From Actinomycetota bacterium (GTDB lineage Bacteria > Actinomycetota > Coriobacteriia > Anaerosomatales > JAUXNU01), in assembly GCA_030682655.1 (NCBI GenBank), contig JAUXNU010000151.1, forward strand, positions 22,196 to 86,195: a stretch of DNA of 64,000 nt. Direction: 5' to 3'. A program made the position numbers and the translations under genes. The notes under the pieces were generated by a model. That model saw only the letters and a program-made list of their open reading frames with translations. It was not told the DNA's origin and did not search any database. The first letter of the stretch is position 1. Each line of letters opens with the position of its first letter. Below are positions 38,958 through 43,223 of the stretch, piece by piece.

Positions 38958-39707
38958 TCAGATGATATGGCCGAGGAAGTCTTTGGTGCGCTCGTTCTGG
39001 GGGTTGTCGAAGACTTCGGACGGCGTGCCCTCTTCGACTATCACGCCCTCGTCCATGAATACGGCGCGGCTCGCGACGTCGCGCGCAAAGCCCATCTCGT
39101 GTGTCACGACGAGCATGGTCATTCCGGCGCGAGCAAGTTCCTTCATGACGTCGAGCACGCCGCGAACGAGCTCGGGGTCGAGCGCCGAGGTGACCTCGTC
39201 AAACAACATCACGTGTGGATCCATCGCAAGCGCCCGCGCGATTGCCACGCGCTGCTGCTGACCTCCGGAGAGCTGCGACGGGTAGTAGTCGACCCGGTCG
39301 CCCAAGTCGACCCTCTCGAGCTGCTCGATCGCGATGCGATCGGCCTCCTCCTTGGAACGGCCGAGCACCCTACGCTGCGCGAGCATGACGTTGCCCTTGG
39401 CAGTGAGGTGCGGGAACAGATTGAAGGACTGGAAGACCATGCCGATGCGCTCGCGCACCTCGTTGATGTCGGTCTTTGGGGCATTGACCTGGATGTCTTC
39501 GAGCCAGACCTCCCCGCCGGTGGGTTCTTCTAGCCGGTTCACGCATCGCAGCAACGTCGACTTCCCCGACCCTGACGGGCCAAGGATAACCACCACTTCG
39601 CCCTTGGTGACGTCCATGTCGACTCCGCGCAACACTTCGAGGTCGCCGAAGCGCTTATGCAGGTTCTTGATTCGCACCACCGGTTCGGAGTTCACCGTAC
39701 TGCTCAC
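38958..39707 (-). CDS. Polar amino acid ABC transporter ATP-binding protein
   Basis: '[13 protein letters not shown]', '[15 protein letters not shown]', '[11 protein letters not shown]'. Confidence 0.96.
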
Positions 39708-40984
39708 GGGCGATCACCCACAGTCTTCGGAGTCGAATCACCGGGCGCTATCGCGTGCTCGGACTCGATCGGTTCAGGCATGAGCGCCTCTCGCGCGCCG
39801 CCCCCGCCACCCTCCGCTTCAGCGAGCCTACTCTCGAGACCAGCGACGAAGCGCCCGAGCGGAATTGTCACCACGAGATAGAAGCCTGCCGCAAGCATGT
39901 ATGGCGTCGTGTTGAACTTGGCGGCCGAAATCTCCTTGGCCTTGAGCGCCATCTCCGCCAAACCGACTGCAGCGAGCAAGGCGGTGTCTTTGAACAGAAG
40001 AATGAACTCACTCATCATCGTCGGCAGAATGCGCCGAACGGTCTGCGGAATGATGACGTAGGCCATGGCCTGCGGCGTCGACATCCCGAGAGAGCGCGCG
40101 GCCTCCATCTGGCCCTTGTGAATCGACTGGATGCCAGCACGGAAGATCTCGGCCATGTACGCCGCGGAGTTCAGGCTCAGAACCACGTATGCACGCATGT
40201 ACAGTGTGTTCGTGATGCCGAAGAGGCCCGCCTGGTTGAGCCAGGGTACCGTTTCGGTAAGCGTCTTGTAGGCCGGCATCAGCGGGAGTCCGAAGAATAC
40301 GAGCAGAATCTGCAGGAATAGCGGTGTGCCTCGGATGATGTCGACGTAGATCGTCGCCGGCCATCGCGCCCACCGCGTCCTCGCCATCTTCATGAACGAC
40401 AGGATCAGACCGAACGGAATCGCGAAAGCGAAAGACACGAGCACGATGGCCAGGGAGACGGGAAACGCCTTGGCTATGATGGGGAATGACTCTTGCGCAA
40501 CCTGCGGCGACAGGAACTGGTGCGTCACGGTGGACGACTCCCACCAGTCGTAGAACGCTGCGAAGCCTTCGGGTCCCGTGCCGAAGCGAATCTCGTAGTC
40601 CCCAATTACCAGGACATCGCCGTCGCTCAAGGGCGCCTGGTCGAACACGTCGCCGTTCAATCGGACGGCCTGTGTGCTCTCCCCGCTCGCCACAACGCGC
40701 CACGACGGCTGCTCCCCGGCCTCTTCGGCAGGCACCCGTTCGAGAGTCGCGACTACGCCGCTCTCGATGCCGGAAGTGATGCGCACGTCTCCGAGGCGGC
40801 CGATGGTCGCCTCGGGCTCGGTGAGCCGATACACGGATTCGCGAGCCTCTGCCGCCCGTGTGGCTTCGGTGTTGCGGAAGAACACGCGGTCGGGGCGCTG
40901 CATCGTCAGCAGTTGCCATGCTAGAACCCCGACAACCAGCGCGGCGATTGCGACGGTGAGGGTTCTGCGCTGCCTGCGAGTCAA
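39704..40984 (-). CDS. Polar amino acid ABC permease with an N-terminal FHA-like domain
   Basis: '[10 protein letters not shown]', '[11 protein letters not shown]', EAA motif '[10 protein letters not shown]'; extra domain of about 95 aa after the first TM. Confidence 0.92.
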
Positions 40985-41014
40985 CGGACCTGCCTCTGCG
41001 GGTCGACAATCAGA

Positions 41015-41049
41015 CTGCGGGGTCGGCGGTCACACCGCCGACCCCGCAG
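41015..41049. repeat. Perfect 15-bp stem-loop between the binding-protein and permease genes
   Basis: CTGCGGGGTCGGCGG-TCACA-CCGCCGACCCCGCAG; position typical of mRNA-stabilising or attenuating hairpins in ABC operons. Confidence 0.8.
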
Positions 41050-41068
41050 TCCAGCAAACCGATACGTG

Positions 41069-41947
41069 CTAGTCGGCTTTCTTCACCGTAAGCGACTGAT
41101 TGTTCCAGATGTAGATCTCGGAGAAGTCGACTGACTGCGAGCGCTCCGCTCCCAGGTCGCCCGTGGAGGTCATGCCCGACGCGATCATGTCGAACTCCGC
41201 CCCGGCCTTCATCGCAGGTACCAGAGCGTCGAAGTTGTATGTCTTGAATTCGACCTGAACGCCGAGCTTCTCGCCAATCGCAGTTGCGAGATCAACGTCA
41301 AAGCCGACGATCTTGTCGCCTTCAACGTTCTCGAACGGCGGGAACGATGTGTCCGAGCCGACCATGATCTTGCCGGGAACGATCAGCTTGAGTTCGGCGG
41401 CCGGCTTCGTGAAGCCGCTCGCGTCCGGAAGGGACATCGGAGCCTCGCCAAGCCACTTCTCGTAGATCTCGGCGTAGCTACCATCGGCCACGCACTCCTG
41501 CAGACCCCAGTTGATTGCGTCACGCAGTGCGGAATTCTCCTTGTTGAATGCGAAGCCATAGCCTTCGTCGGTCACGATCTCCTCGACGACTTCGATGCCG
41601 AGCGTCTGATCCTTGGCGACGTCGAGAGATATGGTTATGTCGTTGATGACGCCGACCACGTCGCCAGCCTGCAGTGCCTGGAACGCACCGAGAACGTCGT
41701 TGTACGGCACTACCTCGACGCCCTTGGGCACCAGATTCTCCTTGGCCCATGCTTCGCCCGTCGTACCGGACTGCACGCCGACCTTGTCGCCGGACTTGAG
41801 GTCATCGACACTCATGATGCCGGTTGCCTCTTCGGTGGTTTCCTCGGTCTTGGTTCCCTCGTCGCTGCTGCAACCGGCTACGCCAAGAACGGCGAGCGCC
41901 AGAACAACAATCAGCGAAAGAGCGAGAAACTTCCGTGCTTTCTCCAT
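41069..41947 (-). CDS. Family-3 amino acid-binding lipoprotein, circularly permuted
   Basis: Lipobox VAGC; 'DL...KVGVQSGTT...YGFAF...IYEKWL' precedes 'VGSDTSFPPF...GFDVDLA...ERSQSVDFS'. Confidence 0.9.
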   Translation of the reverse strand: MEKARKFLALSLIVVLALAVLGVAGCSSDEGTKTEETTEEATGIMSVDDLKSGDKVGVQSGTTGEAWAKENLVPKGVEVVPYNDVLGAFQALQAGDVVGVINDITISLDVAKDQTLGIEVVEEIVTDEGYGFAFNKENSALRDAINWGLQECVADGSYAEIYEKWLGEAPMSLPDASGFTKPAAELKLIVPGKIMVGSDTSFPPFENVEGDKIVGFDVDLATAIGEKLGVQVEFKTYNFDALVPAMKAGAEFDMIASGMTSTGDLGAERSQSVDFSEIYIWNNQSLTVKKAD

Positions 41948-42110: not shown

Positions 42111-42944
42111 CTACGACGTCGATGCTTCCTCAACCGTCAACTCAGGAAGCTCCCCGACCCACTTCTTGCGGAGCGTATCTAGGACGCCGTTTGCGGCAAG
42201 AGTATCCAGGGCCTGACGCACGGCCCCCTCGAGCTCCGTGTTCTCGACAGCCACCGCCACTCCGAGAGCGGTCGCAGTGCCCGCCTGCCCGGCATAGCGC
42301 ACGGTCGGGTAGTCCCGGGCGATGTAGGCCGCGACTACCGCGTCGCCGCACACGACGTCCACCGAACCGTCCGACAGGGCCTGGAGCGCCTCCCGAAGGG
42401 TCGGGAAGGCCTCTGCGGCACCCTCGCCGTACTCGTACTCGAGAGCCCAGAACGCCTCCGAGCCCTTCTGCGCACCGATAGTCATGCCGCCGACCGAGTC
42501 GATCGTGAGCGTCTCGACCACCGAGCCTGTCTCCTCGGCGGAAACGAAGAAGCCGGGGCCATTGTCGATGTATGTGCCTGCGAAAGTGGATTCCGTGATC
42601 GCACGTTCGGTGAACGGCACCGACATCGCGATGTCGGCATTCCCCGCTTTCAACTCTTGCAGACCCCAGTCCTTGGCGTTGACTACCTCGAGTTCAAGTC
42701 CTAGCTCAGCAGCGAGCGCGCCCGCGATATCGATGTCCAGTCCGGCCTGGCGACCCTTGTCCGTGCCCGCGAAGGGAGGGTAGTCGAGATCGACCGTAGC
42801 GCGCAGGACGCCCGCTGTCCCTATCGTCGGGGGTGCGACCTGCGGCTCGAGTACGACCACGGGCTCGCTCTTGGTGCAGCCCGCAACAGCACCCAGACCC
42901 ATGCACATCACCACGACCAGCACTGCTAGCGCGATTCGGCGCAT
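42111..42944 (-). CDS. Family-3 solute-binding lipoprotein (canonical order)
   Basis: Lipobox VAGC; 'DYPPFAG...GLDIDIA' first, 'LRKKWVG' last; RBS GGGAG. Confidence 0.9.
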   Translation of the reverse strand: MRRIALAVLVVVMCMGLGAVAGCTKSEPVVVLEPQVAPPTIGTAGVLRATVDLDYPPFAGTDKGRQAGLDIDIAGALAAELGLELEVVNAKDWGLQELKAGNADIAMSVPFTERAITESTFAGTYIDNGPGFFVSAEETGSVVETLTIDSVGGMTIGAQKGSEAFWALEYEYGEGAAEAFPTLREALQALSDGSVDVVCGDAVVAAYIARDYPTVRYAGQAGTATALGVAVAVENTELEGAVRQALDTLAANGVLDTLRKKWVGELPELTVEEASTS

Positions 42945-42968
42945 CTCGCTCCCTTCGTACGGCAGTCT

Positions 42969-43223
42969 CGGTGCTTTCACCCGGCTGACCTGGTCTTTGA
43001 CCCCACACTCGCATACCGGAGCTTTCGCTTGATGCGATCTCACTAGCGGCCCTCTCGCCCGCCAGCCAGGATGGCTGGACCGGACGGTACGACTTACCCC
43101 TAAGACGCGCCATGCTCGCGCGACGGCCGAAACCGCCGGCTTACGTGGGTCCTTTCGGCCGCGTCTACCATGGACTAGGATCGCTTGCGCGACCCGCAAC
43201 CACAGACCCGAGTGAAAGCACCG
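42969..43223 (-). ncRNA. raiA-motif RNA
   Basis: Recognised conserved blocks GUGGUUG, CCACGUAAG, GAGCAUGG-GCG-CUUAG-GUAAGUC, GGCGAGAG, UAGUGAGA, GCGAGUGUGGGGUCAAAGACCAGGUCA; 16-bp closing helix; typical context downstream of comF and upstream of binding-protein and raiA genes. Confidence 0.9.

Follow-up and report, generated by a model that had tools for sequence, protein, structure and literature searches.

A circularly permuted family-3 solute-binding lipoprotein encoded beside a canonical paralogue in a PAAT-type ABC importer operon

Can a solute-binding protein (SBP) keep the fold and the ligand site of its family when the two halves of its chain are encoded in the opposite order? In family 3, GlnBP, HisJ/LAO and the SBDs of GlnPQ are the standard models for Venus-flytrap dynamics, docking to ABC importers and biosensor design. 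The question is raised by an operon on the minus strand of the window, by which we mean the whole stretch of 64,000 nucleotides that was analysed. The operon encodes a canonical SBP (SBP1), a permuted SBP (SBP2), a permease and an ATPase, in that order. An earlier reading of the letters alone (the original prediction) had described SBP2 as a natural circular permutant next to a paralogue of canonical order. Both points held, as SBP2 gave split and swapped matches to PF00497, to NCBIfam models and to PDB sequences, and the paralogue at 42111–42944 (minus strand) was collinear with profile positions 1–132. The features are listed below with the evidence for each.

42111–42944 (−): SBP1, a canonical-order family-3 lipoprotein and distant paralogue, 277 aa from the ATG at 42944 (profiles, half-profiles, tree of the re-joined halves)
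41069–41947 (−): SBP2, permuted family-3 SBP lipoprotein gene, 292 aa and stop, the operon's second SBP gene (ORF, profile and PDB matches, homologues, AlphaFold2)
41870–41947 (−): signal peptide and lipobox V-A-G-C26, residues 1–26 (G25 and C26 invariant in 37 homologues)
41822–41869 (−): disordered tether, residues 27–42, now placed on lobe 2 (pLDDT 40–43, variable alignment columns)
41444–41821 (−): canonical C-terminal half, residues 43–168, with most of lobe 2, hinge 2 (126–130) and the C-terminal helices of lobe 1 (NCBIfam, PDB and GlnBP alignments)
41378–41443 (−): linker, residues 169–190, 22 residues (match to canonical tail and tether relics; pLDDT 90–93 without regular secondary structure)
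41072–41377 (−): canonical N-terminal half, residues 191–292, with the lobe 1 core, hinge 1 (279–283) and the first lobe 2 strand (284–290), which forms the new C-terminus (NCBIfam, PDB, AlphaFold2, GlnBP alignment)
41012–41052 (−): RNA hairpin, 19 bp, G+C-rich, between the SBP2 stop and the permease start (folding)
39704–40984 (−): permease, 426 aa, BPD_transp_1 at residues 188–387, N-terminal extension of about 170 aa (Pfam)
38958–39707 (−): ABC ATPase, 249 aa, its start overlapping the permease stop (ORF, profiles)

Order of the two halves, hinges and ligand site

The 292-codon ORF at 41069–41947 (minus strand) has a GGAGGA ribosome-binding site 4 nt 5′ of its ATG, and the tether that follows the lipobox consists of 16 residues and is acidic and Thr-rich. 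The Pfam family PF00497 (SBP_bac_3) matched SBP2 with 121 bits, against a cut-off of 26.4, in two stretches with the halves swapped, which is the outcome that the original prediction had expected of a split alignment. The NCBIfam model TIGR01096 aligned residues 46–166 with profile positions 125–250 (of 250), and the ArtI/ArtJ models aligned residues 192–290 with profile positions 21–115 (of 243). In the best PDB sequence match, AncQR (4zv1), residues 43–168 fell on chain positions 108–233 and residues 192–291 on chain positions 10–105. The E-values for each half were between 1e-20 and 1e-43, and a chance match was therefore ruled out. The swapped two-stretch match was seen throughout, in Pfam, in 12 NCBIfam models and in the 60 listed PDB sequences, and no collinear alignment to the family was found among them apart from that to the tandem protein 6h30. 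The order canonical C-terminal half, linker, canonical N-terminal half was thus confirmed. The linker had been estimated at about 20 aa and quoted as GEAPMSLPDASGFTKPAAEL, which corresponds to residues 167–186; it was delimited here as residues 169–190.

The AlphaFold2 model, computed with an alignment of 37 sequences as input, had a mean pLDDT of 87.6 and a pTM of 0.77. The tether alone was disordered, and the last 12 residues had a mean pLDDT of 73. The strands at residues 118–134 and 280–289 ran without interruption over both hinge segments, which is also the case in canonical proteins. For mapping of the hinges and the ligand residues, both halves were aligned to E. coli GlnBP (K-12 record), in which the large domain comprises residues 5–84 and 186–224, the small domain covers positions 90–180, and the hinge comprises residues 85–89 and 181–185/189 (PMC13229503). 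Hinge 1 (GlnBP 85–89) aligned with residues 279–283 and hinge 2 (GlnBP 181–185) with residues 126–130, the C-terminus at residue 292 corresponded to about GlnBP 98, and the first folded residue, 43 or 44, corresponded to about GlnBP 100. The alignment places the break of the permuted chain in the first loop of the small lobe, 9–10 residues past hinge 1. With a cut in this loop both crossovers would stay covalent, so that two details of the original prediction, a chain opened at a hinge strand and the loss of one covalent hinge, did not survive the GlnBP mapping. The two lobes are predicted to be joined through two hinge segments, as in the SBP_bac_3 family. Lobe 1 would have become continuous (residues 131–278, with the linker inside it), lobe 2 would be split into residues 44–125 and the C-terminal strand 284–290, and the lipid tether would have moved from lobe 1 to lobe 2. 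We infer that the C-terminal strand docks into the lobe 2 sheet, based on homology, on the DSSP strand assignment and on the invariant residues Q284, S285, L286 and V288.

The ligand site was divided between the two halves, with Q59–T63 and N102–D103 in the C-terminal half (residues 43–168) and D199, F202, F239, T260 and R269 within the lobe 1 core of the N-terminal half (residues 191–292). In the alignment, the GlnBP residues D10, F13, F50, G68, T70, R75, T118, D157 and Y185 were matched by the identical residues D199, F202, F239, G258, T260, R269, T62, D103 and Y130, respectively. Family-3 SBPs recognize the backbone of their ligand with an Arg for the carboxylate, an Asp for the ammonium group and loops of Gly, Thr or Ser. 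The set of residues that binds the amino-acid backbone (R269, D103, T260, T62/T63 and D199) was present in SBP2 and invariant across the homologue alignment. The ligand is likely an L-amino acid, polar or basic.

A four-residue insertion was seen at residues 263–266 (approximately 41150–41161), where SBP2 reads T-G-D-L-G-A-E-R in place of T-D-E-R. It occupies the loop of lobe 1 that is flanked by the two contacts to the ligand backbone, the Thr and the Arg, and was confined to a small subclade comprising the window protein, L004, L005, P0003, P0004 and P0015. The insertion may change the specificity.

Conservation, origin and recurrence of the permuted order

The source genome is fragmented, with 221 contigs, and a local mis-join or a collapsed tandem repeat could make an ORF look permuted. 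The search for full-length orthologues that had been suggested at the outset spoke against such an artefact, since the C-terminal half preceded the N-terminal half in 120 of the 120 best homologues when scored with separate half-profiles (57–86% identity, BLASTP coverage mostly 99–100%). These homologues were drawn from assemblies of NCBI, JGI, ENA and Logan, in some cases on contigs longer than 1 Mb, and the permuted gene was carried by 33 independent genome loci with matching neighbours and by 41 species-level genomes. With purifying selection at the codon level over both halves and the linker, mis-assembly is effectively refuted.

In the 37-sequence alignment the mean column identity was 71%, and the lipobox, the ligand residues and the C-terminal strand residues Q284, S285, L286 and V288 were invariant; PF00497 matched all 37 homologues. 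Compared to the nearest relative, L004 (dS 0.68), dN/dS was 0.11 overall, 0.09 in the C-terminal half, 0.06 in the N-terminal half and 0.14 in the linker. Together with the order shared by the best homologues, this low ratio indicated that purifying selection has kept the permuted SBP2. In a class-wide genome sample, the full-length permuted gene was present in 41 of about 143 genomes of the same order, across many families, with one more gene truncated, and no permuted SBP2 was found in the sampled genomes from other orders of the class. The locus records of the relatives were MAGs assigned to Coriobacteriia, Anaerosomatales and Coriobacteriaceae. No canonical copy of the SBP2 type was found in the window's own genome.

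The half-profiles, together with the permease and the ATPase of the window, were used to annotate 80 related genome loci. The order canonical SBP1, SBP2, permease, ATPase was conserved in these 80 loci, with SBP2 permuted in 33 loci (L004–L036) and canonical in L037–L083. In a tree for which the two halves were re-joined in canonical order, the 33 permuted SBP2 proteins grouped with eight canonical SBP2 proteins (L037–L044) from the same slot of the operon, and the branch to the permuted clade was short (0.03), which indicated that no burst of change followed the permutation. The permuted L027 and the canonical L040 were 78% identical, with 84% identity in the N-terminal half and 74% in the C-terminal half; compared to permuted proteins of other lineages, L027 was at most 52% identical. 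A virtual tandem was constructed from L040 followed head to tail by its own mature part. The permuted proteins aligned to this tandem collinearly, with scores of 905 and 708 and one gap of 7–8 residues in the tether. The canonical tail, WFGADPLSIP followed by the stop, matched the start of the linker, which reads WFGAKPMSTP, or WLGEAPMSLP in the window, in a pattern (A-x-P-M/L-S-x-P) that comes from the ancestral C-terminal tail. The end of the canonical tether together with the first strand (EPAPAFTTLVDGK) matched the end of the linker, and the signal peptides of permuted and canonical proteins were alike (M-x-K-A/T-R-K-L-L-S/A-L). The linker can be read as the C-terminal tail of the canonical ancestor joined to a remnant of its post-lipobox tether.

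The collinear fit, including the relics at the junction, supported duplication, fusion and trimming, and the original prediction of a tandem duplication with subsequent trimming agreed with this result. The operon's canonical second SBP gene would have been duplicated in tandem, and the last codon of the first copy would have been fused to the post-lipobox tether of the second copy. The outer half-domains would then have been trimmed, by an in-frame loss of the N-terminal half of the first copy and by a stop after the N-terminal half of the second copy, while the signal peptide of the first copy was kept; the order of the trimming steps is a proposal. A fusion of the C-terminal half of SBP1 to the N-terminal half of SBP2 by an inter-gene deletion would be mechanistically easy with two tandem SBP genes in the operon, but it was rejected as practically excluded, because both halves were nearest to the canonical SBP2 (84% and 74% to L040 in the N- and C-terminal halves), the SBP1 proteins fell into a remote clade of their own, set off by a branch of 1.15 substitutions per site, and SBP1 is still intact beside the permuted gene.

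Forms of the half-trimmed type were found in the wider family, where tandem proteins have the order NCNC, P0237 and P0257 (386–387 aa) the order CNC, and P0146 (437 aa) the order NCN. These one-and-a-half-domain proteins have the form expected of half-trimmed duplication intermediates. They were 35–43% identical to the window protein and are thus not its direct ancestors, and the direct sister lineage yielded no fused or half-trimmed intermediate.

When 1.84 billion representatives were searched, another nine permuted representatives with a single domain were returned, all of them with a lipobox of their own, together with numerous tandem arrays and proteins of the CNC and NCN type. Two of the representatives, P0131 and P0200, were taken further. 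The P0131 lineage had 9 permuted members, with canonical relatives up to 87% identical over one half, and the P0200 lineage had 16, with canonical relatives up to 88% identical over one half. Each of these lineages fitted a virtual tandem of its nearest canonical relative, junction included. The cut in the P0131 lineage was located about 12 residues further on, where the protein ends with ...EKSGITDxSQLK and restarts with HKKIGVQSG, and this shift excludes an origin shared with the window's clade. In a tree that omitted the columns adjoining the cut, forcing all permuted proteins together cost 661 log-likelihood units (AU p = 7e-52), and grouping the window's clade with the lineage of P0131 (p = 3e-5) or of P0200 (p = 5e-42) was also rejected. 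The permutation has been acquired independently in at least three lineages, one of them with a different cut site. The three lineages behind this argument have from 9 to more than 120 members each, and some of the permuted representatives come from single short metagenome contigs. A Treponema/Spirochaetia group (33% identity, four MAGs) probably, if only weakly, represents a further origin (p = 0.046). In each of the families of P0131 and P0200, permuted proteins were interleaved with canonical ones, and monophyly was rejected (AU p ~2e-4, for groups that were defined after the tree had been seen); the interleaving could reflect more events, reversions or recombination between paralogues. P0320 had the shifted cut site of the P0131 type and yet was placed apart on the tree.

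For the window's clade, the tree of permease and ATPase and the tree of the concatenated operon both nested the canonical L037–L044 inside the permuted operons. If the root is set on canonical outgroups, this nesting would imply a reversion or several gains. In the AU tests, however, a monophyletic permuted group was not rejected, with p = 0.46 for SBP2, 0.051 for permease and ATPase and 0.255 for the concatenated operon. The N-to-C junction of L037–L044 (SLAV-AADSAIATVDDL) had the D-S motif and the length seen in the canonical outgroup proteins, the permuted termini end in KKAQ, and the linker architecture P-M-S-x-P ... K-P-A ... T-L-T was common to all permuted members of the clade. The unrejected monophyly, the shared linker architecture and the outgroup-like junction favour one gain in the window's clade, with the ancestral order retained in L037–L044. 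That L037–L044 reverted to the canonical order is unlikely.

Multi-domain relatives were also observed. P0142, P0163, P0130 and approximately 45 other representatives are proteins of 750–1250 aa with a lipoprotein signal and two to four units of C-terminal and N-terminal half, the C-terminal half first. The three that were tested, P0142 (from a Melioribacteraceae MAG), P0163 and P0130, also had a C-terminal permease domain. The N-to-C junctions of these arrays had a median of 8 extra residues, compared to 1 in canonical proteins, and their C-to-N junctions had 13 residues, compared to 22 in single permutants. By sequence they may either be made up of permuted domains in a row or consist of canonical domains with an orphan half at each end, the two orphans pairing with each other.

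The mature chain of a lipoprotein begins with a disordered tether of 15–35 residues. If a tandem duplication is followed by a deletion that takes out the stop codon together with the spacer and the signal peptide of the second copy, the junction would already be flexible, and its tether-derived segment would have the length needed to span the distance between the former C- and N-termini on lobe 1. In the single-domain permutants the junction comprised 17–38 residues, with a median of 22. The tether relics in the linkers suggest that permutation may be easier in tethered than in free periplasmic binding proteins.

Operon context and proposed function

A PAAT-type permease and an ABC ATPase were encoded together with SBP2 in the window and in the 80 loci. 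The hairpin between SBP2 and the permease had a perfect stem, a 3-nt loop and no T-run, and the 96-nt stretch around it folded with −53.7 kcal/mol (z = −5.1). In malE-malF and hisJ-hisQ, intergenic hairpins keep the receptor in excess of the membrane subunits. The hairpin at 41012–41052 could act similarly, by stabilizing the SBP message upstream of it or by attenuating read-through, so that the receptor would outnumber the membrane subunits.

The mechanical ORF of SBP1 extended 85 codons 5′ of the lipoprotein start (42945–43199, minus strand; MRRIALAVLVVV...GC), and translation most likely begins at the ATG at 42944.

The N-terminal extension of the permease begins with one predicted transmembrane helix, followed by about 130 residues, and no Pfam match was found for permease residues 1–170. 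About 24 of the 33 permuted loci had a relative of the extension, and the eight closest canonical loci had none; more distant canonical loci had long permeases (385–483 aa) with extensions unlike that in the window.

Considering the fold, the ligand residues and the operon together, we think it very probable that SBP2 is a functional, membrane-tethered SBP of a polar-amino-acid (PAAT-type) ABC importer that was circularly permuted after duplication of the canonical SBP2. From the lipid-anchored Cys the chain would pass through the disordered tether into most of lobe 2, across hinge 2 and into the C-terminal helices of lobe 1. The extended linker of 22 residues would then lead to the N-terminus of lobe 1, and the chain would continue through the rest of lobe 1 and hinge 1 into the first strand of lobe 2. 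SBP2 would close on a polar or basic L-amino acid in the manner of a Venus flytrap and pass it on to the permease and ATPase encoded next to it. With both hinge crossings and the backbone-recognizing residues kept, the flytrap function should persist; the ligand class and the transport function are deduced from sequence.

Three other readings were considered. In the first, chain order would be labile and possibly selected: the tether would serve as a ready linker, with which gene duplications would yield viable permutants time and again, L037–L044 would be back-permuted, the C-first fusions would be arrays of permuted domains, and re-anchoring would alter how SBP2 encounters the translocator or shares it with SBP1. 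We regard this combination as possible but unlikely. In the second, SBP2 would not be a delivery receptor and would instead serve as a sensor on a tether or as a scaffold partner, for example of the permease extension. In most of the permuted loci the permease does carry an extension of about 170 unassigned residues at its N-terminus, and two SBPs share one translocator, but eight permuted loci had short permeases that lack the extension, and both the ligand residues and the slot directly upstream of the permease and ATPase equalled those of the canonical relatives, so a sensor or scaffold appears highly improbable. In the third, SBP2 would be a decaying, non-functional leftover of a fused tandem gene that no longer binds or delivers a ligand, since the canonical SBP in the operon could serve the transporter by itself. 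This is very hard to reconcile with a dN/dS of 0.06–0.14 in each folded part, with the invariant lipobox, ligand-site residues and C-terminal strand, with the confident fold prediction, and with a gene that is retained over many families of the order in a genome that has no canonical SBP2 copy, and we assign it only a very small probability. A functional, tethered receptor that arose by duplication of the canonical SBP2 remains our preferred explanation.

Comparison with known binding proteins

The permuted proteins are natural, selected permutants that exist beside canonical relatives with 72–78% overall identity and up to 84–88% identity in single halves, and for each origin the duplication, the fusion through the tether and the trimming can be followed at the level of single residues. 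Comparing matched pairs of permuted and canonical proteins would show directly what chain connectivity and the position of the anchor do to opening and closing, to affinity and to delivery, and the natural cut sites at about GlnBP 98 and 108 are candidate sites for sensor engineering. The permutation also degrades automatic annotation. The permuted proteins fell below each NCBIfam cut-off (149 bits compared to 256 for TIGR01096) and, where named at all, carry only the database name 'transporter substrate-binding domain-containing protein', compared to 'basic amino acid ABC transporter substrate-binding protein' for the canonical ones.

Each half of SBP2 was 35–50% identical to canonical family-3 (cluster F) SBPs, namely E. 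coli GlnBP (1ggg, 1wdn), AncQR (4zv1), ArtJ (2pvu) and LAO/HisJ. SBP2 resembles these proteins in its predicted two-lobe fold with a two-segment hinge, in the Arg for the α-carboxylate and the Asp for the α-ammonium group, and in an operon with a PAAT-type permease and ATPase. It differs in that the new termini lie at about GlnBP 98/100 and the old termini are bridged by the 22-residue linker, and further in the predicted tether on lobe 2, continuous lobe 1 and split lobe 2.

The tandem SBD1-SBD2 of Lactococcus lactis GlnPQ (6h30) was the only collinear match among the PDB sequences listed, with query residues 42–287 on chain positions 100–327, and it was also the best Foldseek match. It provides a model for the fused intermediate. 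In GlnPQ both domains are complete and fused to the permease, whereas SBP2 has one domain from which the outer half-domains are gone. Neither the sequence matches nor Foldseek returned a PDB chain with the order of SBP2, and the best query-normalised TM-score was 0.43. Long Foldseek alignments at 10–15% identity to type II MetQ, TauA and HisG were attributed to the pseudo-symmetry of the two lobes and set aside.

The full-text searches found no report of natural permutation in family 3, and the only natural case among ABC SBPs that they returned was a type I protein, TpMglB-2 (Tp0684) from Treponema pallidum, a lipoprotein that binds glucose and belongs to the 'Type Ic / Cluster Bc' group (PMC4990184). 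TpMglB-2 still binds its ligand and closes, and such proteins occur in spirochaetes and Gram-positives, where SBPs are tethered (PMC4990184). SBP2 resembles this group in principle only. The fold of TpMglB-2 is the sugar-binding one of type I (cluster B), its sequence is unrelated to that of SBP2 (PF00497, type II), its permutation adds a fourth hinge crossover whereas SBP2 is predicted to keep two, and it lacks the traceable close canonical relative that SBP2 has.

Engineered family-3 permutants for FRET sensors are listed in PMC7503967, among them cpLAO-BP, FLIP-cpHisJ194, FLIP-cpArgT194 and, from AncQR, cpFLIPR. They show that the fold tolerates joined termini and a new break, as in SBP2. 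In contrast to SBP2 they are man-made, and going by their names their new termini are near residue 194, whereas the natural cuts are near 98–108. By its sequence and predicted structure, SBP2 appears to be a family-3 amino-acid receptor in each family feature tested except the defining order of the chain.
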